Shown here in pieces: positions 7,137 through 57,392 of a stretch of 64,000 nt of DNA (positions are counted from its first letter, which is position 1; each line of letters starts with the position of its first letter). The DNA is taken from positions 1 to 64,000 of the IMG/VR virus record IMGVR_UViG_3300031992_000005; one strand, given 5' to 3'. Origin of the DNA: a virus. The position numbers were made by a program, and so were the translations under genes. The notes beneath the pieces were generated by a model, which worked only from the letters and a program-made list of their open reading frames with translations, did no database searches and had not been told where the DNA came from.

Positions 7137-7138
7137 AT

Positions 7139-7247: not shown

Positions 7248-7249
7248 TT

Positions 7250-7352: not shown

Positions 7353-7355
7353 CTA

Positions 7356-7378: not shown

Positions 7379-7450
7379 AAAAAAAAGAGGTCTATATCTA
7401 TCTCAGACGTTGACCCCTTAAATACCAAAAAAAGTAGTTAAATATTTTAA
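7379..7450 (-). ncRNA. candidate short transcript U1 (about 60-70 nt, boundaries approximate)
   Basis: Lies between promoter motif 7454-7477 and hairpin module copy B plus T8. No ORF. Confidence 0.35.
7386..7419 (-). repeat. hairpin module, copy B
   Basis: AGAGGTCTATATCTATCTCAGACGTTGACCCCTT, 1 mismatch to copy A. Confidence 0.85.
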
Positions 7451-7453
7451 TAC

Positions 7454-7477
7454 CTATACATAAGGCATTGAGGGGAT
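7454..7477 (-). promoter_or_regulatory. phage promoter-like motif
   Basis: Coding strand reads ATCCCCTCAATGCCTTATGTATAG. Confidence 0.5.
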
Positions 7478-7514
7478 AAAAAAAGAAAGCTCCACCCTCA
7501 CGGGCAAAGCTCTC
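7478..7514 (-). terminator. intrinsic terminator of the Clp ATPase gene
   Basis: GAGAGCT/AGCTTTC stem (one G-U pair) followed by T7 on the minus strand. Confidence 0.6.
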
Positions 7515-7527
7515 AAAGAATAATATG

Positions 7528-20545: not shown

Positions 20546-20574
20546 ACATTGTTAAGGATTTATGGGGAAGAAAA

Positions 20575-20604
20575 AAGAAAAAAGAAGTCCATAAAGGGCT
20601 TCTT
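20575..20604 (-). terminator. intrinsic terminator
   Basis: AAGAAGTCC...GGGCTTCTT hairpin flanked by A- and T-runs. Same family as 21269-21304 and 22026-22056. Confidence 0.6.
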
Positions 20605-20642
20605 TTCTTATAGGAGTGATTTGATTCTTTATCTAACAACTT

Positions 20643-21227
20643 CTAATTTTTTACCCAATCTTGAAGCTCAAGCATTAGGTTCATACTTTTCAGTGTTTTC
20701 TTCAATTCATCTACGATCATAACAATCAGGTCGATTGAAAGAAATCTCTCTTCTTCGTCCTCAGGTTTTTCGTCGATTCCAACGTACAGTTGAAGACCTC
20801 TCTTCTTATCGTAAGAGAGTTGGGCCGAGTATGTACGAGTAGGGGATTCCTGCTTACGTTCTCTGATATAGATAGTGCTTGACCAAGATACCTTGAATTC
20901 ACTTGAATGGGGTTCTTCTTTTTTCTCAGGATTGAATACATAATTCAATCCTCTGGAAATCAAACTATATTTAATGATAAACTTTGGGGTTATAACATTA
21001 ATCCCCGACTTAGTTACTCTTAGATAAGTACTGTCAAAATCTTTGACTGCACCTAATTTGTCGCCAATTGGAATCATTTCACCATCTTCGTGTTTCATCA
21101 ATTCCGACAGACCTTCATCTAATATGAGTGGCATTGCAGCTGCCTTTTTCATTTCGAGGCCTTCTTCTACTAATGTAATAAATTTTGTTTTTCTCATTTT
21201 TTTTTTGAAATTTAAAAAGTTATACAT
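20643..21227 (-). CDS. hypothetical protein
   Basis: 194-aa ORF flanked by a terminator-promoter cassette. Confidence 0.6.
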   Translation of the reverse strand: MYNFLNFKKKMRKTKFITLVEEGLEMKKAAAMPLILDEGLSELMKHEDGEMIPIGDKLGAVKDFDSTYLRVTKSGINVITPKFIIKYSLISRGLNYVFNPEKKEEPHSSEFKVSWSSTIYIRERKQESPTRTYSAQLSYDKKRGLQLYVGIDEKPEDEEERFLSIDLIVMIVDELKKTLKSMNLMLELQDWVKN

Positions 21228-21240
21228 ATATTTTTATTAT

Positions 21241-21266
21241 CTCTATACATAAGGCATTAATAGGAT
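21241..21266 (-). promoter_or_regulatory. phage promoter-like motif
   Basis: Coding strand reads ATCCTATTAATGCCTTATGTATAGAG, upstream of 20643-21227. Confidence 0.6.
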
Positions 21267-21268
21267 AA

Positions 21269-21304
21269 GAAAAAAAAAGAAGTCTTTGACGGGCTTCTTT
21301 TTTC
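21269..21304. terminator. hairpin flanked by A-run and T-run
   Basis: AAGAAGTCTTTGACGGGCTTCTT, downstream of 21323-21955. Confidence 0.6.
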
Positions 21305-21322
21305 AGTTTATGTATTGTTCTT

Positions 21323-21955
21323 TTATTCTGCTACAGTTTTGAAGAAATCTGCTACAGCTACAGTCATGTTCTTTACCCAAGTGTTAGCATCTGGTAATAG
21401 TTTACTCCCCAGAGGTATCCACTCTGTAATATCCGTTATTCCCATTCGAATATTAAATCCATTGCCACCGAGATGTTTCTCGAGCTGTAAGAGCACATTT
21501 ATAGTTACTTCACCCCTTGCTTCATAGAGAAGCATGAACTCTGACCCTCTTAATCTTATTCCGTTCTTTTTTACGTTGGTGAGTTCATTGTTATACTCTC
21601 GGTGCAGAGGATATAAGGAATACTGTATACTTTTATTTGACTGAGTATCTAGCAGTTCTATGTCAATTCTATATCCGTTCTTCACTGGTACGATTATCTG
21701 GAGGTCTTTGAGTACCAGACGATCCGTTCCAAAGAACTTTTTCAAATAATGCCCCACTATTTTGTTAGGAGCCTTTATCTCACTATATCCGCTTGATATA
21801 ATAAGATCAAGTATTTTCTTCACCATTTTTTCACAAAACTTCTCATCCTCAGAGAAAAATTTCGTGAACATCTCATCTGCTAAGAATGGGATGTTTCTTT
21901 TTTCTTTCAACTCTATAGAGAGCTGGTGATTAATTAATCCTTTAAATTCTGCCAT
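21323..21955 (-). CDS. hypothetical protein, tandem paralogue 1
   Basis: 210 aa, similar in length and in motifs (IPF.A, LLQ.EK...GF.IR.G) to 22079-22714. It has its own promoter motif and terminator. Confidence 0.65.
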   Translation of the reverse strand: MAEFKGLINHQLSIELKEKRNIPFLADEMFTKFFSEDEKFCEKMVKKILDLIISSGYSEIKAPNKIVGHYLKKFFGTDRLVLKDLQIIVPVKNGYRIDIELLDTQSNKSIQYSLYPLHREYNNELTNVKKNGIRLRGSEFMLLYEARGEVTINVLLQLEKHLGGNGFNIRMGITDITEWIPLGSKLLPDANTWVKNMTVAVADFFKTVAE

Positions 21956-21995
21956 TTCTTATTTTTTTTTTGTGTTAAACAAATAATAAAATTAT

Positions 21996-22021
21996 CTCTA
22001 TGTATAAGGCATTAATAGGAT
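21996..22021 (-). promoter_or_regulatory. phage promoter-like motif
   Basis: Differs from 21241-21266 at two positions. Upstream of 21323-21955. Confidence 0.6.
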
Positions 22022-22025
22022 AAGT

Positions 22026-22056
22026 AAAAAAAAGAAGTCTTTGACAGGCTTCTTTT
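22026..22056. terminator. hairpin flanked by A-run and T-run
   Basis: AAGAAGTCTTTGACAGGCTTCTT, a near-copy of 21269-21304. Confidence 0.6.
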
Positions 22057-22078
22057 TATTAATTAGATGAGTAGAAAA

Positions 22079-22714
22079 TTAAGAATTTTCTTCTACGGAA
22101 ATTTCAGCTATTCTTTTAAATAACTTCACTAAACTATTAGTTACGTGATGAATTCCGGCCTTTATTGCTAATTTAGTCGCTAGTCCGATACCTTCAAGCT
22201 CTTTCTTTGAAAGACCGAATCTAATATCAAATCCAGTTTTCTTTTTTTCGATCTGAAGAAGTGACATTACTTTTGTAGTTTCAATTCCAAATTCTACGAC
22301 GAGAATAAATTCACTCTTTCTACTACCATCATTTGTTCTTGAATAATCAAACTCCTTAAAGCAAGGATAAACTTCAAGTTTCACTTCTTTATCCGGATTT
22401 TTAACTGCCGAAAGTCCAATTGCAAGGTAATTCCCATTCTTTTCTAGGGTTCTAATTCTTAGATTTTTCAACTTATCTATTTCTAGATCAATGAGAGAAA
22501 ATACTCCCATTAGGTTAGATTCAACTACCTTAAATGCTTCACTCTGACAAGTTTTTTCAATATATGAGAAAAATTTATCAATGAATTGATCTATTTGGTC
22601 TTTATCTTTCCCAAAAAATTGATTTAACTTTTGTTCTGCGTAGAATGGGATAATATTTCCACCCTCTACTTTTACTTTTCTAAAACTAGTAATAAAATCT
22701 TTTTCTAAATCCAT
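22079..22714 (-). CDS. hypothetical protein, tandem paralogue 2
   Basis: 211 aa, paralogous to 21323-21955. It has a near-identical flanking regulatory cassette. Confidence 0.65.
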   Translation of the reverse strand: MDLEKDFITSFRKVKVEGGNIIPFYAEQKLNQFFGKDKDQIDQFIDKFFSYIEKTCQSEAFKVVESNLMGVFSLIDLEIDKLKNLRIRTLEKNGNYLAIGLSAVKNPDKEVKLEVYPCFKEFDYSRTNDGSRKSEFILVVEFGIETTKVMSLLQIEKKKTGFDIRFGLSKKELEGIGLATKLAIKAGIHHVTNSLVKLFKRIAEISVEENS

Positions 22715-22752
22715 TTGATTTTTTTTTATTAATTAATAATAAATTTAATTAT

Positions 22753-22776
22753 CTCTATGTATAAGGCATTCACTGG
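22753..22776 (-). promoter_or_regulatory. phage promoter-like motif
   Basis: Plus strand reads CTCTATGTATAAGGCATTCACTGG. Upstream of 22079-22714. Confidence 0.6.
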
Positions 22777-22780
22777 AAAT

Positions 22781-22805
22781 AAAAAAGTCCGCCATAATAG
22801 CGGAC
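22781..22805 (-). terminator. intrinsic terminator
   Basis: GTCCGC/GCGGAC stem plus T6 on the minus strand. Confidence 0.7.
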
Positions 22806-33714: not shown

Positions 33715-34926
33715 TTATTCAATTGGATAAATATCCGATGCGTAAGTACTCCAACCTTCGGCTGCTTTATATACATCTAGACTTTCAGATGGGACGTAGA
33801 ATTTACGACCAGAGGCGTTACCTTCGAATACAGTAATACCCAATTCTGGTGGAGTTGTTGCTAGAATTGTTACGCTAGAAAGATTATTATTATTGTAAAA
33901 TGCATTTTTTTTAATGCTAGTAACTGAGCTTGGTATAGTAACTGCAGTCAAACTATTAGCTGCAAATGCACTTTCGTCAATAATTTTAATACTATCGGAA
34001 AAAGTGATATCTGTTAATGAACAAGCAGCAAAAGCCGAATTACCTATTGACTGTACCCCATATAAAAATTCAACATTTTTTAGATTACTGCAACTTACGA
34101 ATGCTTGTTCAGCTATATTAATGATTGAGCCCGGTATTGTAACCGAGGTTAAACTACTGCAAGTACCAAATGCCATATAGTCAATGCTGGTTACTGAGTC
34201 AGGTATCGTAATAGAAGTTAAGGCAGAACATCCTTGAAATGCCTGATTACCAATACTTGTAACTGAATCTGGAATTGTAATGGAAGTTAAAGAAGAGCAA
34301 CCACTAAATGCTCTACTACCTATACCAGTAACTCCGTCACCTAAAGTAATACATGTTACCTTTCTACAGCCTGAAACGAGGTCATTAGGAACATCAATCT
34401 TCGCATTAAATATTAATTTACTAAACACTTCACTATTATAAATTCCCTGAAGAATTGCAGTTCCTATATAAGTGACTGAACTAGGTATCGTTAGTTCAGT
34501 TAATTCAAAACATCCACCAAATGCGCTATCACCTATACTAGTAACTGAATCTGGAATATTTATGGTTACTATTCCACTACCACCAAAAGCACCCTGACCA
34601 ATACTAGTAACTGAATTTGGAATCATTACTTCGATATTTCCACAACCAACAAATGCACTGTTACCAATACTAGTAACGGAGTTCGGAATTATTACTTTTG
34701 TTAAATTATGGAGTCCACTAAACATGCTTGGAGGAACGATAGTACTGTCTACTAAACTATACTTCACTGTATGTTCCCCCAGTGAATCAAAGGTATATGT
34801 CTTAGTAATTTCAGTTAATTCGATCCCATCGACCTCAACGTTAATGAAATCACCTAGGGATACAGAATTGACACTACTAATTATCTGTGTTGCCTCTTCT
34901 GTACTAGTAACATTAAACTTAGCCAC
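33715..34926 (-). CDS. BspA-type leucine-rich-repeat (LRR_5) protein
   Basis: 403 aa with about 10 repeats of the IP.SVTSIG..AF.GC..L type. The only start in the ORF track is GTG. The frame stays open upstream to 34974 (see the G10 tract). Confidence 0.8.
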   Translation of the reverse strand: MAKFNVTSTEEATQIISSVNSVSLGDFINVEVDGIELTEITKTYTFDSLGEHTVKYSLVDSTIVPPSMFSGLHNLTKVIIPNSVTSIGNSAFVGCGNIEVMIPNSVTSIGQGAFGGSGIVTINIPDSVTSIGDSAFGGCFELTELTIPSSVTYIGTAILQGIYNSEVFSKLIFNAKIDVPNDLVSGCRKVTCITLGDGVTGIGSRAFSGCSSLTSITIPDSVTSIGNQAFQGCSALTSITIPDSVTSIDYMAFGTCSSLTSVTIPGSIINIAEQAFVSCSNLKNVEFLYGVQSIGNSAFAACSLTDITFSDSIKIIDESAFAANSLTAVTIPSSVTSIKKNAFYNNNNLSSVTILATTPPELGITVFEGNASGRKFYVPSESLDVYKAAEGWSTYASDIYPIE

Positions 34927-37249: not shown

Positions 37250-39040
37250 TTAATCCGCATATGAGCGATTGAAATTCTTTACAATGAAATTCGGCGCCCA
37301 TGTAAAGTTGTTATTGTAGTTAGACCTTCCATAATTGAAGCCATACACTGTATACTTAGGCATGTTCTTCAATACGTCGTTCCATTCTTCCAGATAATCT
37401 TCAAAGTCACTAACTACGATCAGTATAGAATCGGGTCTGTAGTTTTCCTTGAAGTACTGAATACCACGAGCTAGTCTTGTTCCACCACCAGAATGAATCT
37501 TTTCTACTCTTTCACCAGCTTTGATATTTCTGATATGTTCACCCATCCTAGTATTCCAAGTGATGATATCATATAGAAGACCCCTATTGATTGATCGCAT
37601 CTTTCTTGAAATGGTAGCTAAGATTCTGTCAATCAGAACAGTATCCATAGAGCCTGAGATATCAATAAGATATACAATCTTTGGTTTCGTATTGATACTG
37701 AACTTTGGTGTAATGGATGGAACTATAGCCGATCGAATCTTTCCGAGGTTATAGTTTCTCATAACGCTTCTCTCGAAACTGATCTTAAGAACTCTTGATC
37801 GAGTCTTATTAATCACTTCCTCAATAGCATCGTCAACTGGATCTTGCTTAGTAGTTATTCTTACACCGTCAGATCCACCTGAGCTTCCACAACCTGCTCC
37901 TCCACCGGCAGTAATTTGACCTAGTTCACGTGATTTATCTGCAGCGTCACGTTCTGTAGTTCTATGATCCTTATGAGTTCCTCCAGAAAGTTCCATGAAG
38001 TTCGAATCTCTCTTTCCAATGTACTTACTTAGTGCGTCTTTTCCGTTTTCCTTAAAACCACCAGAATTGCTGGTATCATTACCACTAGCACCTCCATTAG
38101 AACCAGAGTTTTGATCTCCCTGTTGATCCTGACCAGATTGTCCTTGACCATCCTGACCATCTTCGATCATACCAAGCTGTCTCATCATATCAGTCAAGCT
38201 TGTCATGCCATTTCCAAGTGCTTGAGCCAATTCATCATCTGTAACGCTGCTAGTATCTCCATTACCGCCGGAGCTAATACTAACCAACATCTTCACAAAC
38301 TGACTTATGTTCTTGATAATCAGAATCAGGTATTCAGGATAAGTTAAGCCAATTGGGAATGGACTACCATCCGAAAGATGATAGAAACTAGGGTGCATAA
38401 ACTTGATCTTAGCTTCTTTGGCCATCTTATCCAGGAGTTCATCAATCTTTTTCTTAATATGATCTGGAACGTTTTCTTGATCTCTAATTCCCTTTAATAC
38501 CTCTTCCTCCACTTTTGGTAGGGTTGAAGTTACTCCATTCTGCATAGTTTCAATACAGTCTAAGTCAAGAATCACTGAGTTAACTTCAAAATCCATTGCA
38601 ATATTATGGAGGGAGTGATTGAGAACTGGATCATCTATGATTCGATTAATCAGATCTTCCGCAAAATCAATCTTACATTCATTATTAATTCGATCGATTA
38701 ATTCTCCTCTATAGATTTTCAGAACACTTGCTACTTTTCTATCAAGCTCTTCATAAATACCATCAAGATGTGCAAGATAGATGTGACCATACTCATGCAT
38801 CTTAATGAAGTATTCAGTAGTTTGAAGAAGCTTATCATTGCCATCTTTATCCAACTTGGCTACAACCACATTATACAATGTTTTTCCTCCACTTGCATCT
38901 GCAAATTTCCAGGAGTAACCAAGTTCTGGATTATAAGGATCAAACGGCTTATTTAAGTTTTCTATTAACCGATACTGACCCCTATTGTAAGCTCTTTTAA
39001 CCAGGTTTTCAATAGGTCTGAGCTCATTAACAGTTTTCAT
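37250..39040 (-). CDS. VWA-domain protein with N-terminal HExxH metallopeptidase-like domain (DUF2201-like)
   Basis: 596 aa. HEYGHIYLAH (HExxH), a central G/Q/S/D low-complexity linker, and a C-terminal IVYLIDISGSMD MIDAS (DxSxS) motif. Confidence 0.8.
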   Translation of the reverse strand: MKTVNELRPIENLVKRAYNRGQYRLIENLNKPFDPYNPELGYSWKFADASGGKTLYNVVVAKLDKDGNDKLLQTTEYFIKMHEYGHIYLAHLDGIYEELDRKVASVLKIYRGELIDRINNECKIDFAEDLINRIIDDPVLNHSLHNIAMDFEVNSVILDLDCIETMQNGVTSTLPKVEEEVLKGIRDQENVPDHIKKKIDELLDKMAKEAKIKFMHPSFYHLSDGSPFPIGLTYPEYLILIIKNISQFVKMLVSISSGGNGDTSSVTDDELAQALGNGMTSLTDMMRQLGMIEDGQDGQGQSGQDQQGDQNSGSNGGASGNDTSNSGGFKENGKDALSKYIGKRDSNFMELSGGTHKDHRTTERDAADKSRELGQITAGGGAGCGSSGGSDGVRITTKQDPVDDAIEEVINKTRSRVLKISFERSVMRNYNLGKIRSAIVPSITPKFSINTKPKIVYLIDISGSMDTVLIDRILATISRKMRSINRGLLYDIITWNTRMGEHIRNIKAGERVEKIHSGGGTRLARGIQYFKENYRPDSILIVVSDFEDYLEEWNDVLKNMPKYTVYGFNYGRSNYNNNFTWAPNFIVKNFNRSYAD

Positions 39041-39102
39041 AATTTTTCTATGTATTTAAAGAATTAACCCCAAGAGTTAATACCCCTGGGGTTCAAATGT
39101 TT

Positions 39103-40881
39103 TTACATAATGTCAGGGAATGTTGCTACCAAGTCTGGGCAACTTCTCTGAAGGCCTTTTTTAGTCATCTTAAGATGAGTACTGCACTGTCTACAATCAG
39201 AACGAAGATCGTTCAATGTAGTCTTAACTGTTGCAGGATACTTCTTCGACGGATCTGTAATCAAAGCACCAATCTCAGTAACAAGAGCATTCAAGTTATT
39301 CCAAGCATGGATCTTGCCAATATAGTCCTCTGGATTTGCCTTGATTTCATCAATCAAGTTACCACCGTTAGAACTACTGATCTTATTGGAAATGGACTTC
39401 GTAATCGTGCTCTTGATACTGCTGCAGATCTTTGAAATGATATCTTCGTCGAGTGGACGATCAATCGTATCAATTTCCTTGTCTGCACGAAGCTCCTTAA
39501 TCTTATTGGTGAGAATATTCATATCACCAATCGAGAATACCGTTCTTGTCTCATTCCCGATGAATGAGCGGAAGAATTCCTGATATTCTGGAAGCTTATT
39601 GCTCGTCATCTTTTCGATATCGTTCGAAGTATCACAGATGTTCATAAAGAATCGATCTGTCAGGATATTTCTTACAACCTCCCTAGTCTTAGGATCTCTT
39701 GTCAATCCAAGACCAATAGTACCGTTGATAATATTCTTAAAATTATCAGACATCAAACCTTCCTTTCCGAAGCAAGCATAACATGCTACAGCTGCATCAA
39801 GGAGATAGTTGAGCGTACGATACGTTGTGAGATTGCTAAGTGGCTCATCCACCTCATTTGTATCGGAATAAATATCCTTCATACTTGTGACATTGAAGTC
39901 AAGCAAACCTTCCTTCTGGAGAGCTTTTGCTTCTGTATTCAGGTTATTCTCGATATATTCACCCGCCTTATGAAGGAAATCTTCATCCAATGGCTTTTCT
40001 TGTGCCATAAGAGCACTCATAGATTTCTTGATCTCTTCAAATAGATCAATTCTCTTACCTGCAAGTGATCCCTGATACTTGCACAGATAATGATCAAGAT
40101 CATTAGCCTTTGGCTGGATATTGAATATGATGAAGCGGTTCAACATTGGAGCCAGAACTGTCATTTCATCTGACAGGTTTTCCGCATAATTACCGGCAGC
40201 TACAATTAATGTATCATCTGGCAATAACTCATCATGACATTTTCTATCGAACACTAGGTTTAGGGCTGCACCTTGAGTCTGTGGATTTGCTGTAGTCAAC
40301 TCATCAAGGAAGAGGAGAGTTTTCTTACCCTGCTCTTTGTTCTTGAGAATCTTCTGAAACCAAGATGGTCTGATATGCTTAGCTGAAGCATGATCATCGT
40401 TGGTCAACGCCTGTACGTTCGCAGACCCCTTCTTCGTAAGATCTTCAACCATCTTGTGGAATTCAGCGGTTGCAAATTCATTGAACTTTGCCTTGAACTC
40501 CTCAGGAATATTGTAATCTGAGCAAGAATCATCGATAAACTTCAAAAAACTGCCTTTTAAGGATTTCAATGAATGGGCAAACTGTTCTGTTGTTTTACAA
40601 ACTGCCTTATTGATTTCCTCTCCGCTAGTTTCAGATTTTACAGTGTCATAACCCGTAATAGTGTCTGGAGTTTCATTACTGATTCGAAGCAATACTAGCT
40701 CGTAATCATTAATTTCGGCAAAGAGCTTGACAGCAGTACTTTTTCCTACACCAATATTGCTAATAAGCAGGATGTTAGGAATGTCTATTGATCGGTCCTT
40801 TGCTCTCATCTCCATACATTTACGTGTGATTTGTAACGCGTAAAAGATGTTCGTGTCGATTGAATTGTTAAAATTAACCAT
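39103..40881 (-). CDS. MoxR/AAA_5-like AAA+ ATPase
   Basis: 592 aa. Walker A NIGVGKSTA, Walker B TLLFLDELT, sensor VAAGN and MLNRF, plus a long C-terminal extension. Confidence 0.8.
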   Translation of the reverse strand: MVNFNNSIDTNIFYALQITRKCMEMRAKDRSIDIPNILLISNIGVGKSTAVKLFAEINDYELVLLRISNETPDTITGYDTVKSETSGEEINKAVCKTTEQFAHSLKSLKGSFLKFIDDSCSDYNIPEEFKAKFNEFATAEFHKMVEDLTKKGSANVQALTNDDHASAKHIRPSWFQKILKNKEQGKKTLLFLDELTTANPQTQGAALNLVFDRKCHDELLPDDTLIVAAGNYAENLSDEMTVLAPMLNRFIIFNIQPKANDLDHYLCKYQGSLAGKRIDLFEEIKKSMSALMAQEKPLDEDFLHKAGEYIENNLNTEAKALQKEGLLDFNVTSMKDIYSDTNEVDEPLSNLTTYRTLNYLLDAAVACYACFGKEGLMSDNFKNIINGTIGLGLTRDPKTREVVRNILTDRFFMNICDTSNDIEKMTSNKLPEYQEFFRSFIGNETRTVFSIGDMNILTNKIKELRADKEIDTIDRPLDEDIISKICSSIKSTITKSISNKISSSNGGNLIDEIKANPEDYIGKIHAWNNLNALVTEIGALITDPSKKYPATVKTTLNDLRSDCRQCSTHLKMTKKGLQRSCPDLVATFPDIM

Positions 40882-40968: not shown

Positions 40969-40993
40969 AAATAAAAAGGGGGAATATCCCCCT
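40969..40993 (-). terminator. intrinsic terminator
   Basis: GGGGG/CCCCC stem within AGGGGGAATATCCCCCT, followed by TTTTTATTT on the minus strand. Confidence 0.65.
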
Positions 40994-42514: not shown

Positions 42515-44047
42515 TTATTGAATATTTACTTCTCTAAGCTTCCACTTAACTGTAGCCATGTAAGAGGAATCTCCGAGGATAGGGACTTTACATTCGATAT
42601 CTTCAATGTAAGGCGAATGGTGATCCTTCTTGAAATTCACTGTTTTGGAGATGATCATTCTGAGAGTTAGGTACTTCAGAGAATCACTGCATGCGCGAAG
42701 CTTCTTTGACCAAAATTCCAAATCCTTACCTTGTTCATTAACCTTATCAAGAATCCACTTGAGTTGACTTGACTTATTCTTTGACAAGAAATTGCCTACT
42801 TCCCCAGTCTTGATATAACTTACTATGGCCTCCTGGATTTTTGCTGTATCCGAAGGAACGTTGTTAATATAAGTTATCAATGCCGTGGAGAATTTCTTTG
42901 GTAATTCTGCATCAACTGAAACTGCGTTTGATGGATAGAACTTCTTGCCATAGATACCAAGGCTTTCTAGGAACTGTATCTGAGGATCAATCTTCTTTTC
43001 GCCTTTATTCATATCCTCAATAGTCTCGTAGTATTGTACAGCAATCTTAGAGACATATTCGCTTACCTTAGCCATAGCTAACTGATTAGCATAAAGCTTT
43101 CCAATCTTAGTCTTTTCTATGATAGGAAGCTTTGTCAGATCAACTGTATCTCCTACAAGAACCTTCATACTATGAAGTTTTTTCTTGAGAGAAGGATCAC
43201 TGAGTCTTACTTTCAGCTTATTGATGTTCAATACACCATCGCTGACAACGTTGATTGTTCTGATACAAGTCAAACCCTTTCCAGCTTCTTTACTGATGCC
43301 AAGGTTGTTGTCTGGAACATCAACGTCGACAAATGTTCTGTAGGAAAGCGAGAGATTAGCCCTTTGCTTATTGCCCATGACACTTATTACAGTTTTCCAA
43401 GGACAATTGTCAAACTTTACATTATCTGGAAGTTTAACTTTGCTATCCGTAACACGCACAAATCCTTCAATAGAAACTTCTGCATGATCCTTTGCCAGGT
43501 CTTGGAGAAGTGAGAATACACTATACTTACTATTACAACTTCCGTAAGTCACTGGGTACTTTACTTTCTCAGCCAAGATGTTCAGTTTAAGATTCTCTTG
43601 ATTATTTTGAATATAGAGAGCCAACCCTTCCTTTAGCAACTGGAATTGTTTTTCTCCATACGCTCTATTGAAAGATGTAATAAGGTCATCGTCTTTCGTA
43701 GACAAGAACAGTGATTCCATCAAGCTCAAGTACTTAATAGGTAATCCTATGATTGTTCGCAGAATAACCAATAATTCTGCATTGTTGTGGAGATTCTGTC
43801 TTTTAGGTTCTCCTGCTTTTATCTCTGTGATAAGATAAAAAACAGATACATTAGCTAAAGGCAGCATCTCCCCTTTCAGGGGAACAAATCGAATATTATT
43901 ACCCCCTTCGCCAACAGTAATGGCGAATTTGTACATAAGACTACCTCTATTTTCCACTCGATAGAGGCCATTCTCGTTAACTACATGGTAAACTGATAGC
44001 TTAATTTTACTATCTCTTACCTTAAATTCATTCGTTTTTGTTACCAT
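42515..44047 (-). CDS. hypothetical protein
   Basis: 510-aa ORF. It shares its first 8 codons (MVTKTNEF), leader and promoter with gltX upstream. Confidence 0.7.
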   Translation of the reverse strand: MVTKTNEFKVRDSKIKLSVYHVVNENGLYRVENRGSLMYKFAITVGEGGNNIRFVPLKGEMLPLANVSVFYLITEIKAGEPKRQNLHNNAELLVILRTIIGLPIKYLSLMESLFLSTKDDDLITSFNRAYGEKQFQLLKEGLALYIQNNQENLKLNILAEKVKYPVTYGSCNSKYSVFSLLQDLAKDHAEVSIEGFVRVTDSKVKLPDNVKFDNCPWKTVISVMGNKQRANLSLSYRTFVDVDVPDNNLGISKEAGKGLTCIRTINVVSDGVLNINKLKVRLSDPSLKKKLHSMKVLVGDTVDLTKLPIIEKTKIGKLYANQLAMAKVSEYVSKIAVQYYETIEDMNKGEKKIDPQIQFLESLGIYGKKFYPSNAVSVDAELPKKFSTALITYINNVPSDTAKIQEAIVSYIKTGEVGNFLSKNKSSQLKWILDKVNEQGKDLEFWSKKLRACSDSLKYLTLRMIISKTVNFKKDHHSPYIEDIECKVPILGDSSYMATVKWKLREVNIQ

Positions 44048-44108
44048 TTTTCTAGTAATTATTATGAATTAAACAATATAACATTCAAATATAAAGAGTT
44101 TAAGGCTT
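44014..44108 (-). repeat. duplicated promoter / leader / first-codons cassette, copy A
   Basis: Matches 45691-45779: a 29-nt block with 1 mismatch, a short variable segment, then a 39-nt block with 2 mismatches. Includes MVTKTNEF(-)KVR codons and an AGTTTAAGGC...TATAAAGAG promoter-like motif. Confidence 0.9.
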
Positions 44109-44146
44109 AGATACTGCAGCTCTTTCTATCGTATTTTCATTGCAAC

Positions 44147-45727
44147 TTATCTCAGTTGCGCAATAGCATTTTTCATGCGCTTAATGGTTTCTTCCTTGCC
44201 AAGAAAAGCTGCCAACTCATACATATCAGGTCCCTGTCCTGTTCCCACCAAGCAAACACGCCAAGCGTTCCAAGGCTTGAATCCATGTGCCTCCGTCCAT
44301 GCTTCAATCATTTTCTTCAGACTTTCAACAGAGAAGTCATCAAGTGATTCGAGCACACCAATAAGCTCATCCATCTCCATAGCAGTTGTTTCTTTCCAGT
44401 TCTTGCGGACAAACTTATCTTCCTTGTTGTATATTTCAGGAGTTACAAAGAAGAACTTAGTCAGCGGCCAAAGGTCACTGATGAAGCTTACATTCCTCTT
44501 CTTCTTGTTGCCGTCGTTGTCAACATATTCAATCACTTTCTGTTTCATCATCTCCACGACTTGCGCTTCCTGCTGAGGCGTGGATTCAATGCCATTAGCA
44601 CGAAGAATCTTATTAAATTCAGGAACCCACTCCTCCGCTGGCTTTTTGAGTATATACTGGTGATTGAACCAAATGCTCTTCATGTAGTCAAAATGCGCAC
44701 CACACTTTGAGCACTTACTGAGATCGAACCTCTCAATAAGTTCATCCATCGACATTAATTCCTGGTCGTTACCTGGATTCCAACCAAAGAGAGCCAAGAA
44801 ATTGACTAATGCCTCTGGCAGGTAGCCTTTTTCACGATAGCCTGGACTAACCTCTCCCGACTTAGGGTCGTGCCATTCAAGAGGGAACACAGGAAATCCC
44901 AGTTTATCGCCATCGCGCTTTGAGAGTTTTCCATTACCCATACCCACTGGCTTGAGAATCAATGGTAAATGAGCAAAGCGTGGCATTGTGTTCTGCCAAC
45001 CAAATGCTTCATAGAGCAGCACGTGAAGTGGAGCCGAAGGCAACCATTCCTCACCACGAATAACGTGGGAAATCTTCATTAAGTGGTCATCCACAATGTT
45101 TGCCAAGTGATAAGTAGGCAATTCATCAGCACTCTTGTAGAGTACCTTGTCGTCGAGGATACTGCTGTTAATGCTTACATCGCCACGAATCAAGTCATCC
45201 ACATGCACATCACGTCCTGGCTCAATCTTAAAACGAACCACATACTGTTTGCCGTCAGCAATCAGTGCATCCACTTCTTCCTTACTGAGAGTGAGAGAAT
45301 TACGCATCATCATGCGGGTTTTGGCATCGTATTGGAAGTTCTCTATTTCCTGACGCTTAGCATCAAGTTCCTCGGGTGTGTCGAAAGCAAGATAAGCTTT
45401 GCCATCGTCAAGCAACTGCTGTACATATTTCTTATAGATGTCACGGCGTTCACTTTGGCGATATGGGCCATAGTTGCCACCAAAGGAAACACCTTCATCG
45501 AATTTGATTCCTAACCAATTGAACGACTCAATGATATACTCTTCAGCTCCTGGAACAAAACGATTGGAATCGGTGTCTTCGATACGGAAAATCAAGTCAC
45601 CACCATGTTGTTTTGCGAACAAGTAATTGTAGAGAGCTGTGCGAACCCCACCAATGTGCAGAGGTCCTGTTGGGCTGGGTGCAAAACGCACTCTTACCTT
45701 ATTAAATTCATTTGTTTTTGTTACCAT
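44147..45727 (-). CDS. gltX: glutamate--tRNA ligase (GluRS)
   Basis: 526 aa. [16 protein letters not shown] (HIGH motif), FRIEDTD and GKLSKRDG (KMSKS). It is full length including the anticodon-binding region. The N-terminal approx. 130 aa closely resembles Bacteroides GltX as I remember it. Visibly more G+C-rich than the phage background. Confidence 0.93.
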
Positions 45728-45779
45728 TTTTATTATTAATTAAACAATATAACATTCAAGTATAAAGAGTTTAAAGCTT
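45691..45779 (-). repeat. duplicated promoter / leader / first-codons cassette, copy B (drives gltX)
   Basis: See copy A. It has one extra codon (Asn) after MVTKTNEF. Confidence 0.9.
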
Positions 45780-45832
45780 CAGGACCTCAAGCCCTTACAG
45801 GTGTATATAATTAATATTAAAAAGATTAGACT

Positions 45833-46423
45833 ATGAAATGGGAATGGTATGAAGTAACAACTGAAGTCTTAAAAGAAGCTTTGGAGTTTTATAGCAAGCC
45901 TGAAGAAGACTGGATCAAAGATGTAGTTATTGAAGTCCAAAATCCAGCTAGCTTAATAAATTCAAGAGTATATCTTACTGCAGTGCCACCAGATAAGATG
46001 GATAAAAAATTGGCAGAAGTAGCAAAAATGATTTCAGTTATTGTTGTTAACCCAGGAGAAAAGTTTGCCAGAGTTACATTAACGCCAATGAATCAATTTT
46101 TTGGTAGTAGTTGCTTAGAGAAACTTTTCGGAAATGTGTATAAGCCACATGAACGTAGCTATCTAAATTTTCTCAAACAGAAAAAGATAGAAGGTGAATC
46201 TTTTGAGAAATATCTCAATAGGATGTGGTATATATTCTGTAACGATGAACGAGTACGGGTCGGAATCGGAGAAGAGGATATTTATAACCCTAATGAGAAA
46301 TTCGTTAGAATTAGGCCTATATACTACGACACTTGGTTAGACTTGATGAAATTATATACAGAAACAGGAAACATTAAATACCTTATACCTGAACAAGATA
46401 TTAAAATTTTTAAAGTTAAATGA
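45833..46423 (+). CDS. hypothetical protein
   Basis: 196-aa ORF. Confidence 0.6.
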   Translation: MKWEWYEVTTEVLKEALEFYSKPEEDWIKDVVIEVQNPASLINSRVYLTAVPPDKMDKKLAEVAKMISVIVVNPGEKFARVTLTPMNQFFGSSCLEKLFGNVYKPHERSYLNFLKQKKIEGESFEKYLNRMWYIFCNDERVRVGIGEEDIYNPNEKFVRIRPIYYDTWLDLMKLYTETGNIKYLIPEQDIKIFKVK

Positions 46424-52781: not shown

Positions 52782-52991
52782 TTACGTATCTCTTGTAAGT
52801 ATTGTCCAGAATATGGCTACTATTAATACGATCATTACTATAGGCCATAGCCATAGCATGAAAAACTTCAAGATACGCTCTAAGAGTTTATTCTTGAAAG
52901 TAATTCTCCTAGTAAGATTATATTCCTGTAGGGTCATAAATCCTACTATCAAGTAGCAAATTACTATAAATGTAATTTCAATGTAACCCAT
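52782..52991 (-). CDS. small membrane protein
   Basis: 69 aa with two hydrophobic helices. Confidence 0.5.
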   Translation of the reverse strand: MGYIEITFIVICYLIVGFMTLQEYNLTRRITFKNKLLERILKFFMLWLWPIVMIVLIVAIFWTILTRDT

Positions 52992-54471
52992 AAAACGCCT
53001 TTCTAATTTTTATTAATATATCATCTACTACAGATTTGTCAATTTCATCAGGGAGAGATGAATTAGCCATAGCCTGTTTCATCTCCTCGTCTTTACTTTC
53101 TAAGAATTTCATAAGATCATCATATACGACATTACCTTCTCGAATATTCATCAAGAATTCTCTATCGATATTTCTTCGATCTAATTTCATGCCTTCTCCT
53201 TTGGCGATCTCAATTCCCATTGTTAAGAGTCTAGCACTATGACAAGCATTTTTCAGGTCATAATGTCCTTTCTTTGCGAGATTAAATCTCTCTTCATTAT
53301 GATGCTTATTCCAGTCATTGTATTCATGATACTGCTTACAATAGTTCGAGTAGCCATCTTTATTATAAGATACATCAATGAGAGGCAACTCACCTTTCGG
53401 AATGGAGCTTAGTCTTACTTGATTACTAGTATCAGCCAAGTTAACTAATCCCTTATAGCCAAAAGGCTTTTTATATCTCTCCCAAGTGAGATGAATGAAA
53501 TCTCCTTCATCATATGCCCCGAATAATGTAAAAGCATTTACGAATAGTAATTTCCAGAATGGATCAATATCTTGGAAATTCTCCGTGAACGTATTGGAGA
53601 ATTTTGGCAAATGTTCTGCAAATTCTTCTTCTGTTGTAATACCAATATCCTTAAGATGTGCTCCCCAGTCATAGTACATGCTATACATGCAGTTCATTCC
53701 GTCCAGGTTAACTAATCCACAGAATTCCTGCTTCAATTTATTGAAACCTAGGTAATCGACAACCTTCTTAACATCACCGTCAACTGCATATAAGATATAC
53801 TCTAGACAGCTCTTAAGTGGACCTGTCATAGGTTGAGTAATTTTCTTCTTTAGATCCCTAGCTCTTTCAATCTGAGTCTTAGCATATCCTAAGAATGAAT
53901 GGAAGCATTTCTTAGTGATAAACCTATCTCTTTCCTGTAAGATAATATCCATTAATGGATGTTTATAAAGAATTTTATCTTCAGGAACAAATAAAGACTC
54001 TAAGACATTTGGATTTGATTTAAGCAAGAGGAGAAGAAATTTTTTGAGACTAAACCAAGACTCATTATTATCCCGAGTATTAATATCCTCTGGAAAATCC
54101 AGTCCTGTTCCAAAACAGATTTCCATAGGTTCAATGAATACTCCGCCATGATCTTCATCGCTTTCTGGCCTATCTAAGCCATATAAACGACTACCACGTA
54201 TATATTCATATAACAAGAACCCATTTTTTCTAATGTAATCAAATTCAAAATGATCTAATGAATAGTCATCCTGAATAGCTACATTAGTAGTACAGAATTC
54301 ACTATTAATTTCTATTGTATAAACTTTACCAACTTCTACTATGAAAGTTTTTTCAAGTAAGTCGATAACAGTTCCTACCATTCTCCAACACCATCTATGC
54401 TGAAGAATTATTAAGGTTGACCCTTTTTCAATAGTCTTTCCATAAAAGTCTACAAATTTCATTTTTTCCAT
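52978..54471 (-). CDS. Pol-beta-fold nucleotidyltransferase, RlaP-like (PF10127-type)
   Basis: 497 aa. GSRLYGLDRPESDEDHGGVF matches the GS..YG....SD.D..GV nucleotidyltransferase motif. It has an approx. 85-aa N-terminal extension. Confidence 0.7.
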   Translation of the reverse strand: MEKMKFVDFYGKTIEKGSTLIILQHRWCWRMVGTVIDLLEKTFIVEVGKVYTIEINSEFCTTNVAIQDDYSLDHFEFDYIRKNGFLLYEYIRGSRLYGLDRPESDEDHGGVFIEPMEICFGTGLDFPEDINTRDNNESWFSLKKFLLLLLKSNPNVLESLFVPEDKILYKHPLMDIILQERDRFITKKCFHSFLGYAKTQIERARDLKKKITQPMTGPLKSCLEYILYAVDGDVKKVVDYLGFNKLKQEFCGLVNLDGMNCMYSMYYDWGAHLKDIGITTEEEFAEHLPKFSNTFTENFQDIDPFWKLLFVNAFTLFGAYDEGDFIHLTWERYKKPFGYKGLVNLADTSNQVRLSSIPKGELPLIDVSYNKDGYSNYCKQYHEYNDWNKHHNEERFNLAKKGHYDLKNACHSARLLTMGIEIAKGEGMKLDRRNIDREFLMNIREGNVVYDDLMKFLESKDEEMKQAMANSSLPDEIDKSVVDDILIKIRKAFYGLH

Positions 54472-54510
54472 AAAAATATATTTATTAAATACATATTTAA
54501 GGGAATAATG

Positions 54511-54541
54511 TCCCCTTAAATTCTTATTTATATATGATAAC
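54511..54541 (+). promoter_or_regulatory. plus-strand phage promoter-like motif inside a minus-strand gene block
   Basis: TCCCCTTAAATTCTTATTTATATATGATAAC. It forms an inverted repeat (TTAAGGG/CCCTTAA) with the minus-direction motif serving 52978-54471. Confidence 0.5.
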
Positions 54542-54633
54542 GAATTTAATTGTCAGTTTCAGTTTCGTTTGCTTAATTTTAGTGGTGGCTTATTATCTAT
54601 CCAAGAATGGAAGGTAATAAGCCTTTCTTTTTT
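54542..54633 (+). ncRNA. candidate approx. 90-nt antisense-oriented small transcript (or 27-aa hydrophobic peptide mRNA)
   Basis: It runs from the promoter motif at 54511-54541 to a 9-bp hairpin (GGCTTATTA/TAATAAGCC, 54587-54623) plus TTTCTTTTTT. Confidence 0.4.
54587..54633 (+). terminator. intrinsic terminator on the plus strand
   Basis: 9-bp stem, 19-nt loop, T-rich tail. Confidence 0.65.
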
Positions 54634-54698
54634 GTTCAAAAAAAAAATAAGAAGGGAACAACCTAATCTCTAGGTCCCTCCCCTCCTTACTATAAACT

Positions 54699-55964
54699 TT
54701 AGGAAAATATCTTATTTTCTAACTGGATGCTTGATCCGATATTGTCTCCATTCCTACTCTGAATGAAAGTCAATAGGCCGAGCTTCTTTAATCCAAGCAA
54801 AACTACTGCTGCAAAATCCTTTGGATATACACTTTGAATTACTGAAGCAAGTCCCCCAGACAGTTCTGCATCTAAAACTCTCAGAGACAAATTGGCTGTC
54901 TTTTCTGCAAATAACAGTATTGCATTCATTATACCTAACCAAGCCACAATCTTATTGAAGTTAAAGGTTGGACTCAAGAATCTAAATTCTACAGTCTTAT
55001 TAATCCTATAACACAATAAGTTGACTAAGTTCATCCAGTAATATCTGGTAGGTATTCTCCATTTTGCCTCACGAGTAATATCACGTGGATGTGGTTGTGT
55101 GAAACTACCCATGTAATTCTTACCCACCAGGTATGCATATAGTGCATTGAAATTTGGCAGAGAATCTATACTAGGCAATTTCTTACAGTAATCCTTGCCA
55201 GTAGCCTTATACTCTGAACTTCTAAATGCCAGAGGTGGAAGAATAGTCGATAATTCGCATTCTAGCTTCTTACAAACTCGATAGAGATTATAGACTACTT
55301 CTGGTACCATAGGGTAACCCCCCAGGTGAACATGCAGAGAACATTCCTTATTAAAGATGGTATATTCATTCAGGGTATCTACTTGTTGACGAAGGAGATT
55401 AATTCCCTCATTTCCAGAAAGAACCACGGTTGAATATTCCAATCCACCGATAGATCCATCTCTTAGTGGAATAAGACCGTCTCTGAAACAGAGGTGTTCT
55501 GGAATATATCCACCACTTGTCTCAAACTCAAGACCAAAGGTATACTTGAGATATTTAGACAGTTCATAGAAGTCTATCTTTAATAGCTTCTGCTTATCCT
55601 TGAAAATGTCAAAGCTTTCTACAGCCTCATATTTTCTGACGAATCTCTGATAAGGATATCTACCATTTCCATAAGTGAATCTCTCACGAAGATAACCTTC
55701 CTGCGAAAAATCTACAAATTTACTGAAATAAACACCTTGTAAGTTACTGTAGAAAATCTTATCCTTCACCAGCTCATAGCAAGCATTTACTGTTCTGAGA
55801 GAATGTGGGTCTTTGTCGTAATCAATCAACATTAATTGAATGATAGATGCTCTATCCGCTACATATCCGTATATTATGTGGCCATCTTTTAAGAGATCAA
55901 CCACCACTGACATACATCTTCCTTTATTCTCTAGATTTCCAGTATAACTATCTACTACTTTCAT
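54699..55964 (-). CDS. amidoligase (Amidoligase_2 / GCS2-like COOH-NH2 ligase)
   Basis: 421 aa. Contains FGLEFETSGG, GGLEYSTVV and CSLHVHLGG. Confidence 0.7.
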   Translation of the reverse strand: MKVVDSYTGNLENKGRCMSVVVDLLKDGHIIYGYVADRASIIQLMLIDYDKDPHSLRTVNACYELVKDKIFYSNLQGVYFSKFVDFSQEGYLRERFTYGNGRYPYQRFVRKYEAVESFDIFKDKQKLLKIDFYELSKYLKYTFGLEFETSGGYIPEHLCFRDGLIPLRDGSIGGLEYSTVVLSGNEGINLLRQQVDTLNEYTIFNKECSLHVHLGGYPMVPEVVYNLYRVCKKLECELSTILPPLAFRSSEYKATGKDYCKKLPSIDSLPNFNALYAYLVGKNYMGSFTQPHPRDITREAKWRIPTRYYWMNLVNLLCYRINKTVEFRFLSPTFNFNKIVAWLGIMNAILLFAEKTANLSLRVLDAELSGGLASVIQSVYPKDFAAVVLLGLKKLGLLTFIQSRNGDNIGSSIQLENKIFS

Positions 55965-55970
55965 GTTACT

Positions 55971-57392
55971 TTAACCTTTAAATAAGCGAGCAACAAGCGT
56001 TGCTATCTCTGATTTCGTAAATTGTTGATTTGCTTCAACGGCTTTAAATGGTTTACTATACTGTTGACCATAACAAGTCGTTACCAAAGAGCCGTCCCTA
56101 TAGGACTTGGAAAATCCTTCACCCAATCTCTGAATGTGCCCTGTAAAAGGTACCGTCTTAGATCCTTCAACAACTTGGTGAACAATATTCTTGTCATCTA
56201 TGTAGAAAGGCTCTAAGCTGAGATATCTAATCAAGTAGCAATTCTTGATTAAGAAATCCTTGACAGAGGCACAGGTCTTTTTTCTTTGCACGGAAACTTC
56301 TTCCTCGTGTGTTATATATTTCCAGCACCTCTTATTTAAGAGTGGAATTCCGTTATAAAACCAAACTGAATGGGTTGTACAGTTTTTATCTTTTCCAAGA
56401 TCTGCCTCAGGAATTACTCTACCATAAATTGTGAGGTTATACTTACCATTCATAGGTACACCCCTCAATTGATAGGTGAAGTTCTCCATTGCTCTTATGT
56501 AATTAGACTGATGATATACACCATCACTATCATAATAGCCATTATAGACATGAGTATTTCCAAAGGCAGTGGTACCAACACCATTAAAACCAACGGTAGG
56601 TACTCCTCCCCCACTATAATATGTGGCTTTATATGGTTTCGTTTGGATAGCTTTATCTCTACTATAAACTCCAAGATCCACTAATCCATCCTCAGCTGTA
56701 TAAGACATTAAGTGATTTCCGTCAATGGTATATACCTTTTGTCCTCTTCTAAGGGCATCGAGATATTTACCTATTGATGAGAATACAATCTCATCTTCCG
56801 AATCATCAAAAGTCATATACAAAGGTCTTTCTTCCTCAGGCTTTACCGAATATTCTGTTCTCTTAGATATTCCCTTGAAGAACAGACACTTAGGGCTATC
56901 TACTCGATAGTCAATGATTACAAATACACTACCGCCATTATATTCTGACAGTACGTCATATCCCTTGTAATAGAAGATCCTGGCCATGACTTGTGAATCA
57001 GTCATGTCATCTATCTTAATGTTTGGGATATACTTTTGAGCAAGTTCTTTGTAATTATAGATTGTACCGTTATGAAGAACTACAAATCTGATTCTTCCAG
57101 ACTTATCCTTCAAAACAACAGGCTGAGCAGTTCTTTCATTGATGGCACCAACAGATGCTTTTCTACAATGTCCAACTGCTATCGTAGACTCTTTTTTATT
57201 TTTCAGAATCTTACTTTCAGTGAAGAAGTCTTGAAACAGCTTATTATCTCTAACGCCGTATTCATATTCTCCATCGATGAAGATTCCACACGAATCTCCG
57301 CCTCGGGAATCATTGTTGACCCCGAGTACAGAGAATGTAGAATAGTCGAATGCCCGTTTTTTCCTATTTATTATTCCGAAAAGTCCGCACAT
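55971..57392 (-). CDS. class-II (Ntn) glutamine amidotransferase domain protein with unknown C-terminal domain
   Basis: 473 aa. MCGLFGII (Cys2 nucleophile), VGHCRKASVG and VLHNGTIYN. The C-terminal approx. 230 aa is unassigned. Confidence 0.8.
   Translation of the reverse strand: MCGLFGIINRKKRAFDYSTFSVLGVNNDSRGGDSCGIFIDGEYEYGVRDNKLFQDFFTESKILKNKKESTIAVGHCRKASVGAINERTAQPVVLKDKSGRIRFVVLHNGTIYNYKELAQKYIPNIKIDDMTDSQVMARIFYYKGYDVLSEYNGGSVFVIIDYRVDSPKCLFFKGISKRTEYSVKPEEERPLYMTFDDSEDEIVFSSIGKYLDALRRGQKVYTIDGNHLMSYTAEDGLVDLGVYSRDKAIQTKPYKATYYSGGGVPTVGFNGVGTTAFGNTHVYNGYYDSDGVYHQSNYIRAMENFTYQLRGVPMNGKYNLTIYGRVIPEADLGKDKNCTTHSVWFYNGIPLLNKRCWKYITHEEEVSVQRKKTCASVKDFLIKNCYLIRYLSLEPFYIDDKNIVHQVVEGSKTVPFTGHIQRLGEGFSKSYRDGSLVTTCYGQQYSKPFKAVEANQQFTKSEIATLVARLFKG

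Follow-up and report, generated by a model that had tools for sequence, protein, structure and literature searches.

The stretch analysed here (the window) consists of the 64,000 nucleotides (nt) at positions 1 to 64,000 of the IMG/VR virus record IMGVR_UViG_3300031992_000005, and positions are given within it. The window contains gltX, a gene for a glutamyl-tRNA synthetase (GluRS) of 526 amino acids (aa), at 44147..45727 on the minus strand. On one side of gltX lies a resident phage gene for a 510-aa protein (42515..44047, minus strand), which has no Pfam match and to which Pfam assigns no function. On the other side is a gene for a 196-aa protein (45833..46423, plus strand), the left neighbour of the insertion, which is transcribed divergently. 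The 5' regions of gltX and the 510-aa gene are direct repeats of each other. Comparison with bacterial hosts and with relatives of the phage indicates that gltX was captured from a host, and probably a single illegitimate event placed it between the 196-aa and 510-aa genes and left the repeat as a by-product.

The catalytic domain of the GluRS is recognised by Pfam tRNA-synt_1c (PF00749, E 1e-92) from residue 10 onward and over profile positions 1-309 of 314, and the anticodon-binding domain by Anticodon_2 (PF19269, E 6e-20). The HIGH motif is present as HIGG at residue 24 and the KMSKS motif as KLSKR at residue 267, and the 526-aa product is predicted to be a complete GluRS, a class I aminoacyl-tRNA synthetase. 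Residues 1-9 are those of the 510-aa phage gene (plus one Asn), and from residue 10 on the protein is host-derived.

Beyond the phage lineage, the nearest GluRS are 519-aa proteins with 91-94% identity that are encoded in Bacteroidaceae/Prevotellaceae metagenome-assembled genomes (MAGs) from the rumen and the ruminant gut. Among species representatives, RUG849 (uncultured Prevotellaceae, 94%) and RUG14395 (uncultured Bacteroidales, 92%) come nearest. At the DNA level the phage gene is ~90% identical to gltX of rumen Prevotellaceae/Bacteroidales MAGs, and at the protein level 94%. The neighbours of gltX in the hosts (HSP20, glycoside hydrolase, Kdo-transferase and peptidase genes) place it in a cellular context. 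Because the 94% protein identity is to MAG GluRS whose genes sit in cellular contexts, gltX is of host origin, as an initial annotation of this DNA had proposed, and by its sequence it is a recent acquisition. The GC content of gltX is 44% against 34% for the window, and its GC at third codon positions is 0.46, compared with 0.38 in the neighbouring gene and 0.54 in the hosts.

The repeated 5' unit and its two junctions

The upstream region and first codons of gltX (45691-45779, minus strand; copy 1) and the same region of the 510-aa gene (44014-44108, minus strand; copy 2) form a two-copy direct repeat, each copy being a cassette of promoter-like region, leader and codons 1-12. That the two genes have near-identical 5' ends at these coordinates was already part of the initial annotation, and strand reading and alignment show it to be correct. 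A 37-nt upstream block, TTAAACTCTTTATA[C/T]TTGAATGTTATATTGTTTAATT, is found at 45738-45774 and 44067-44103, and a 26-nt coding block, ATGGTAACAAAAAC[A/G]AATGAATTTAA, at 45702-45727 and 44022-44047. On the 3' side of the coding block there is a 3-nt indel, followed by GGTAAGAG in both copies. Each block occurs exactly twice in the window at up to 3 mismatches, with 0 occurrences expected in shuffles. In total the copies differ by 4 substitutions, the 3-nt indel and a 9-nt indel. The latter is AATTACTAG at 44052-44060, exclusive to the 510-gene copy, while the former is an extra TAA/AAT in the gltX copy that gives the GluRS its additional Asn. The repeat takes in 33-36 nt of coding sequence and measures 89 nt in copy 1 and 95 nt in copy 2 where it is clean. 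The clean part of the duplicated unit is thus 95 nt, and the whole is probably ~112-117 nt if a scrambled 10-nt patch at the 3' joint is counted.

At the 5' junction, a three-way nucleotide alignment shows that host identity begins with the 10-mer AAGGTAAGAG, which also closes the repeat as its final 10 nt and forms codons 9-12 of the 510-aa gene. In gltX it lies at 45691..45700 (minus strand), covering codons 10-13 (of the last only the first base), which correspond to host codons 5-8. Its resident partner lies at 44014..44023 (minus strand), where codons 9-12 of the 510-aa gene encode K-V-R-D. The host reads ...AAAAAATGGTTGAAAGA-AAGGTAAGAG-TGCGTTTTGCACCC..., the phage gltX ...ATGGTAACAAAAACAAATGAATTTAAT-AAGGTAAGAG-TGCGTTTTGCACCC... 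and the 510-aa gene ATGGTAACAAAAACGAATGAATTT-AAGGTAAGAG-ATAGTAAAATT, the sequences on either side of the 10-mer being unrelated between host gltX and the 510-aa gene. A short identity of both parents exactly at the novel joint, with none beyond, is the mark of microhomology-mediated illegitimate recombination or template switching. The 10-mer has only two sites on that strand of the window. Among hosts the exact sequence is confined to the donor clade (2 of 80 species representatives, as well as the host loci L009-L015), and other hosts code K-V-R differently.

The initial annotation had suggested that gltX was grafted in frame onto a copy of a resident promoter, leader and first codons, with the junction possibly at the shared KVR codons. 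The alignment at the 10-mer agrees with the graft and with the position of its joint, and identifies the latter as a microhomology. The KVR codons are, however, not purely those of the phage, as K-V-R is also native to the N-terminus of host GluRS. This N-terminus reads M[VS][ED]RKVRVRF, with KVRVRF present in 80 of 80 species representatives. The start MVTKTNEF, on whose absence from host GluRS the proposed graft depended, was found in none of the same 80.

When 5.8 billion proteins were considered, relatives of the 510-aa protein were limited to near-identical copies and three proteins at 26% identity. Its N-terminus aligns end to end with such distant homologues (MEEIKINNSKLKI..., MEILINNSEFKL...), K-V being matched to K-I, L-I or L-V, and the 510-gene copy of the repeat is therefore the original and the gltX copy the derived one. 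No gltX was present upstream of the distant homologues. The reverse direction, with the start of the 510-aa gene copied from gltX, was considered and is ruled out by this alignment and by the presence of that start in relatives whose site is empty of gltX.

The 3' junction is less tidy. The match to hosts of the L009/L019 type ends at the gltX stop codon. Past the stop, host L020 (RUG14395) reads TAA-T-TTGCCAATAG and the phage relatives L001-L007 read TAA-A-TTGCCAATAG, and host-derived DNA therefore reaches 14 nt beyond the stop codon. In the window this remnant of the host 3' flank is found at 44126..44146 (minus strand). The window lineage carries an extra 10-nt insertion (AATGAAAATA) within the 14-nt remnant (11582-11595 in L001), and its GluRS ends in AQLR, not AQLK. 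Both the insertion and the AQLR end are reproduced exactly in the contig L016. The short spacer between gltX and the following cassette is evolving quickly.

Between the host remnant and the clean repeat lies a junction zone, AAAG[A/G]GCTGCAGTATCT (44109..44125, minus strand), which is a scrambled partial copy of the ancestral AAGGGCTTGAGGTCCTG. The ancestral counterpart is retained at 45780..45796 (minus strand) and is identical to the sequence of the empty site. AAGGGCT is so infrequent, with just 7 occurrences in the window when both strands are counted, that its match at this offset is unlikely to have arisen by chance. The 17 nt of the zone are accounted for in part only. The junction filler ATAGAAAGRGCTGCAGTATCT had no exact match in species-representative genomes; its stop-proximal part was later traced to host L020 by alignment. 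Homology at the 3' joint amounts to at most ~2 nt.

Relatives with and without gltX

Seven relatives bearing gltX (L001-L007) were obtained from JGI, ENA and Logan assemblies and show 96.4-97.9% identity over up to 20 kb. All seven contain both cassette copies and identical junctions, and the capture is therefore one event in a common ancestor. Two further relatives, L017 and L018 (Logan SRR16020863 and SRR16020858), were found via cluster members of the 510-aa protein. In these, a 197-aa gene, the counterpart of the 196-aa gene, is separated from the 510-aa gene by 113 nt without gltX between them, and the flanks are 93.4-94.5% identical to the window. With blastn, positions 3-4034 of L017 align on window 49727-45691 and positions 3940-9533 on window 44108-38527. 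The recipient segment between the two breakpoints is thus duplicated in the window, nt 3940-4034 of L017 (95 nt) matching both 45691-45779 and 44014-44108. It had been expected of relatives lacking gltX that a single cassette would precede the 510-aa gene, and both L017 and L018 conform to this.

The single cassette of L017 and L018 combines the left flank of copy 1, which in the window is contiguous with ancestral intergenic DNA, with the body of copy 2, which is of the ancestral type. AAGCC, TATATTTG and AATTACTAG are present and the extra TAA is absent. Relative to the empty site, copy 1 has undergone C>T and T>C substitutions, a 9-nt deletion and a TAA insertion. At window positions 45737 (A/C after TTTAATT) and 44030 (A/G in AAAAC[A/G]AATG), some of L003 and L004-L007 carry the state of the other copy, which suggests occasional gene conversion between the two.

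If the empty site were secondary, an ancestral gltX having been lost by recombination between the direct repeats, the order of events could not be read from L017 and L018. Direct repeats of ~90 nt with ~93% identity and 1.67 kb apart would be good deletion substrates in recombination-proficient phages (for the principle see PMC2839356), and in some relatives polymorphic A/G and A/C sites are common to both copies, a hint of exchange between them. However, the cassette of L017 and L018 lacks every one of the five copy-1-specific differences, which would confine the crossover to the first 4-5 nt (AAGC) and keep it out of the 29- and 39-nt identical blocks. Moreover, the flanks of these two contigs are the most divergent of all (93.4-94.5% against 96.4-97.9%), as would fit an outgroup that never had the insertion. 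Because of this confined crossover and these divergent flanks, the empty site is most simply taken to be ancestral, and we consider secondary loss distinctly unlikely. Even if true, it would leave the formation of the junctions unchanged.

The GenBank phage collection contained no match to the 3.8-kb region (megablast) or to the 510-aa protein (tblastn), and IMG/VR contained neither the cassette nor a relative of the 510-aa or 196-aa protein. In metagenome_contigs, neither of two pattern scans aimed at the cassette or the empty site gave a hit. Since the same patterns do match the window and L001-L003, and so proved valid, that collection is taken to be without this lineage.

Once in the phage, gltX has evolved with a ratio of nonsynonymous to synonymous divergence (dN/dS) of 0.06-0.08. 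Differences of the phage gene at invariant host sites number 73 for GC>AT and 26 for AT>GC. The gene appears to be functional, and its composition seems to be drifting toward that of the phage.

The alleles of the gene are mosaic. Between the window and L001, divergence is 7-9% in mid-gltX and ~2% in the flanks, and the differences are strongly clustered. At 17 consecutive informative sites (nt 108-253) the window allele agrees with the hosts and L001 does not, while over nt 585-1083 it is mostly L001 that agrees with the hosts; in a runs test, 40 runs were expected and 21 were seen (P = 2e-5). Over nt 121-240 the window allele shows 100% identity to the L009/RUG849 type and L001 shows 99.2% identity to the L020/RUG14395 type, two host types that are ~8% apart there. 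At nt 1321-1440 all phage alleles are nearest to L020, and other tracts are common to L006, L007 and the window. In psbA-type recombination, tracts are clustered and their nearest relatives conflict within a single gene, and the clustered switching of nearest host therefore indicates that tracts have been exchanged with other phage alleles and with gltX on the chromosomes of at least two host species.

A phage-specific 6-nt insertion (44939..44944, minus strand) adds Gly-Met at GluRS residues 262-263, three residues before KLSKR. Together with an L>I change, it is found in every phage allele read at this site (the window, L004-L007, L016 and P0006, which is the protein of L001-L003), and it persists although neighbouring tracts have been overwritten by host alleles. 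The hosts read LLLKP[VIET]GNGKLSKR here in 87 loci, as do nearly all GluRS homologues fetched; one reads VVNGKLSKR. The serine within the KLSKR motif is presumably the equivalent of Ser239 in GltX of E. coli. In that species the toxin kinase HipA phosphorylates Ser239 and thereby inactivates GltX (PMC6581861). It would be a long shot to suppose that the phage GluRS does more than boost translation and is a defence-resistant substitute that a HipA-type kinase of growth arrest or abortive infection cannot switch off, with gene conversion keeping the rest of the protein matched to the host tRNA-Glu.

The promoter-like core and the route of capture

The promoter-like core of the cassette is CCTTAAACTCTTTATATTTG in copy 2 (44086..44105, minus strand) and CTTTAAACTCTTTATACTTG in copy 1 (45757-45776). 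The core CCTTAAACTCTTTATA[T/C]TTG resembles a recurrent intergenic motif of the phage, for example CCCCTTAAACTCTTATATATG and AATGCCTTATATATAG, that lies upstream of many genes, and the resemblance of the repeat to other intergenic motifs is limited to these 12-20 nt. From this resemblance we infer that the core may be a promoter. A scan for sigma-70 promoters gave results below the shuffle expectation. The Bacteroidetes -7 motif TAnnTTTG, which has a perfect match (TATATTTG) in copy 2, was tried as the promoter but rejected, as the motif is not enriched upstream of the genes of the window. Predicted RNA structure is no better than in shuffles (fold z = +0.3 for both cassette regions), and no terminator-like hairpin was found in 44048-44146 or 45728-45832. 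The initial annotation had remarked that gltX is without a terminator, and indeed none precedes the next gene; however, this does not single out gltX, as the next two genes (510 aa and 193 aa) are likewise without one. Downstream, terminator-like sites first appear at 40977-40993 and 39066-39093.

The same annotation had seen in the repeated cassettes evidence that they mediate modular gene shuffling in the manner of the promoter-early-stem-loop (PeSL) elements of T4-type phages. PeSLs are numerous composites of a stem-loop terminator and a sigma-70 promoter that recombine homologously (Arbiol, Comeau & Krisch 2010, PMC2839356; also Comeau et al. 2014, PMC4122927). In a capture of this kind, dispersed promoter cassettes would supply the homology, and gltX, carried for instance on a mini-circle with a single cassette, would have entered through homologous recombination with the cassette that precedes the 510-aa gene. 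The phage does have a genome-wide family of recurrent composite intergenic elements with hairpin, T-run and promoter-like motif (families D1, D2, D5, D7-D9; at 6269-7488, 18239, 20547-22789, 24963, 25375 and 51491), which the core of the gltX cassette (CCTTAAACTCTT...TATAT) resembles. As with open reading frames flanked by PeSLs (PMC2839356), short regulatory sequences in direct repeat flank a non-core gene here, and relatives differ exactly between them, L017 and L018 having one cassette and the window and L001-L007 two around gltX.

Beyond these likenesses the two systems differ. PeSLs are many and dispersed, whereas the 89/95-nt unit has exactly two copies in 64 kb, with homology elsewhere limited to ~12-20 nt. 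Neither copy has the stem-loop terminator and early promoter of a PeSL, with no stem-loop (fold z = +0.3) and no terminator-like site in either region. Coding sequence makes up 33-36 nt of the unit, whose right end falls exactly on the joint between phage and host DNA, and the donor is a cellular chromosome without any such cassette. Crossovers did not fall within the cassette; the joints are with non-homologous host DNA, sharing 10 nt on the 5' side and no more than ~2 nt on the 3' side. A mini-circle would still require illegitimate joins to make the first gltX cassette. Because the repeat ends at the phage/host joint, was single-copy before the event and has no donor counterpart, it cannot have mediated the capture by homology. 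The repeat was made by the insertion, and the claim of cassette-mediated shuffling finds no support here; capture through PeSL-like cassettes is very unlikely. By analogy, the two repeats could now act like PeSLs, allowing excision or deletion, formation of a mini-circle and re-insertion.

That the locus is an assembly artefact, in which host gltX reads were misjoined into a phage contig and the repeat is a mis-assembly, is scarcely credible: the material is indeed assembled from metagenomes, the window gltX matches host alleles at 100% identity in places and contig L016 breaks at the repeat boundaries, but the same junctions are found in at least eight contigs of JGI, ENA and Logan assemblies from different samples, the fusion is in frame, the Gly-Met insertion is found in no host, the divergence from all hosts is AT-biased, and host homology ends 14 nt past the stop codon.

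The account that we favour is a single illegitimate event. One illegitimate recombination or replicative template switch would have brought host DNA about the size of one gene into an ancestor of the phage lineage, the piece starting at codon 5 of gltX and ending 14 nt beyond its stop. At the 5' joint, the chance 10-nt identity between codons 9-12 of the 510-aa gene and host codons 5-8 would have produced an in-frame fusion in which resident phage DNA, namely the promoter-like region, the A-rich leader and the first 8 codons, provides for expression of the GluRS. At the 3' joint, host DNA would have been rejoined to the phage at a point ~95-115 nt upstream of the 5' breakpoint, where homology was slight or absent and a scrambled patch of 10-17 nt resulted. 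A 3' joint located upstream of the 5' breakpoint means that the promoter-like motif, leader and codons 1-12 are present twice. The joins may have been illegitimate ones involving two sister phage genomes (end-joining). Alternatively, a nascent strand may have copied the phage promoter and first codons, switched to host gltX at the 10-nt match and then switched back upstream of the promoter (copy-choice). Either route would yield this product. The sequences themselves show the two joints, the microhomology, the empty site, a single event, the host origin and the mosaicism, whereas the enzymology, the activity of the promoter and the benefit of a phage GluRS are inferred. Selection would keep the duplication, through which gltX gains phage expression signals and the 510-aa gene retains its own. 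GluRS is expected to tolerate N-terminal extensions, because the host N-termini before KVRVRF vary in length. The capture would have been followed by purifying selection, drift toward the AT-rich composition of the phage and repeated tract exchange with host and other phage alleles.

Several observations weigh against this account. The four derived changes of copy 1 are fixed in all relatives, and an insertion model does not specifically predict them. The cassette copies match sigma-70 promoters poorly and have no good match to the Bacteroidetes -33/-7 promoter, which leaves their promoter role putative. The 3' junction is not clean, its 10-17-nt scrambled patch and the window-specific 10-nt insertion blurring both its position and any microhomology. 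The empty-site contigs each cover only ~9.5 kb, and gltX could lie elsewhere in those genomes. Finally, the host-identical tracts of the window allele (gltX nt 1-260 and 390-560) could in principle be chimeras of metagenome assembly. Two findings speak against such an artefact. Three separate assemblies carry the same L001-type allele, and the window allele recurs at 100% identity in L016, which is a contig of 1,618 nt from JGI sample 3300035054 (a sample that may or may not be that of the window).

As to the wider surroundings, exact copies of window proteins are present on contigs of 353,025 and 353,905 bp, so this rumen phage is a huge one of ~353 kb. The three contigs with distant homologues of the 510-aa protein are also of huge-phage type, one of these homologues being encoded on a 380-kb contig with RNA polymerase fragments. 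The window has accessory genes of huge-phage type at 7528-10197, 52978-57392 and 37250-40881 (all minus strand). They comprise a ClpB-like double-AAA ATPase (889 aa), RlaP, an amidoligase with a class-II glutamine amidotransferase, and a VWA (CoxE-like) protein beside an AAA_5-like ATPase. A BspA-type leucine-rich-repeat protein (33715-34926, minus strand; Pfam LRR_5, E 3.5e-74) has a host-like surface-protein domain, and its gene contains internal DNA repeats of 66-69 nt at 33913-34697. Despite the GluRS, no tRNA gene was found in the 64-kb window.

Two of the intergenic arrays are of interest in themselves. At 6700-7530 (minus strand) there are ~6-7 short units at a spacing of 99-136 nt, each with a ATCCCCTTAATGCCTTATATATG-type motif, 40-90 nt without an open reading frame, and a hairpin with T-run. 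The array may represent small phage RNA genes in tandem, or promoters and terminators arrayed as decoys. At 20547-22789 (minus strand), three successive intergenic regions ~755 nt apart carry composite elements that are 70-88% identical (hairpin, T-run, AATGCCTTAT[AG][TC]ATAGAGATAAT). Two of the genes they flank, at 21323-21955 and 22079-22714, are paralogues with 31% identity, and this is the most PeSL-like architecture of the window.

Comparison with known systems

In the model of phage mosaicism associated with Hendrix and Hatfull, morons and other auxiliary host-derived genes are said to be gained by illegitimate recombination. Like a moron, gltX has a foreign base composition and lies between two genes that are adjacent in relatives, its junctions have little or no homology, and its product has been retained by selection. 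A classical moron brings its own promoter and terminator, whereas gltX took neither signal from the host, identity to which begins at codon 5 and ceases 14 nt after the stop. Its expression signals would come from its being fused in frame to the copied promoter, leader and N-terminal codons of the resident gene, and it has no terminator. The mechanics of illegitimate acquisition in phages have been discussed elsewhere (PMC2327257).

Huge phages are known to encode tRNA synthetases, including GluRS that group with those of Bacteroidetes hosts (Al-Shayeb et al. 2020, PMC7162821, Extended Data Fig. 7a). The present phage is alike in that it exceeds 200 kb and encodes a GluRS grouping with the GluRS of its Bacteroidales hosts. 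However, the synthetases of that study were described as distinct from the host enzymes though related to them, while here protein identity is 94%, DNA tracts are 99-100% identical, and both the junctions and the state before insertion are visible. The mosaic gltX also warns against a simple reading of phage tRNA-synthetase trees.

Intragenic recombination between host and phage has been described for psbA and psbD of cyanophages (Sullivan et al. 2006, PMC1484495). Those genes share with gltX the patchiness in identity and GC, the exchange of tracts among phage and host alleles, and an intermediate GC consistent with amelioration. They differ in that gltX is an essential housekeeping enzyme of translation, in a system of rumen Bacteroidales. 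Here, alleles of two host species occupy the same gltX segment in sister phages, and the evidence for exchange, in whichever direction, comes from metagenome assemblies only. A phage copy of an essential gene can evidently keep exchanging tracts with chromosomal alleles of at least two host species, which is useful for inferring host range.

Precedents thus exist for tRNA synthetases in huge phages, for host genes captured illegitimately and for gene conversion between host and phage. What is new is the resolved anatomy of one case: an in-frame graft at a 10-nt microhomology and a duplicated promoter, leader and first codons, with the donor clade and the empty site both at hand. Most host-derived phage genes are too old for their junctions to be read, whereas in this instance the donor clade, the joints, the prior state and the later history can be followed at the nucleotide level. 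The locus illustrates one route by which a huge phage may make a host housekeeping gene phage-expressed in a single step, with neither gene losing its expression signals. It also corrects the tempting view that flanking repeats prove cassette-mediated shuffling. Set beside these systems, the capture of gltX is a clean yet mechanistically ordinary example.

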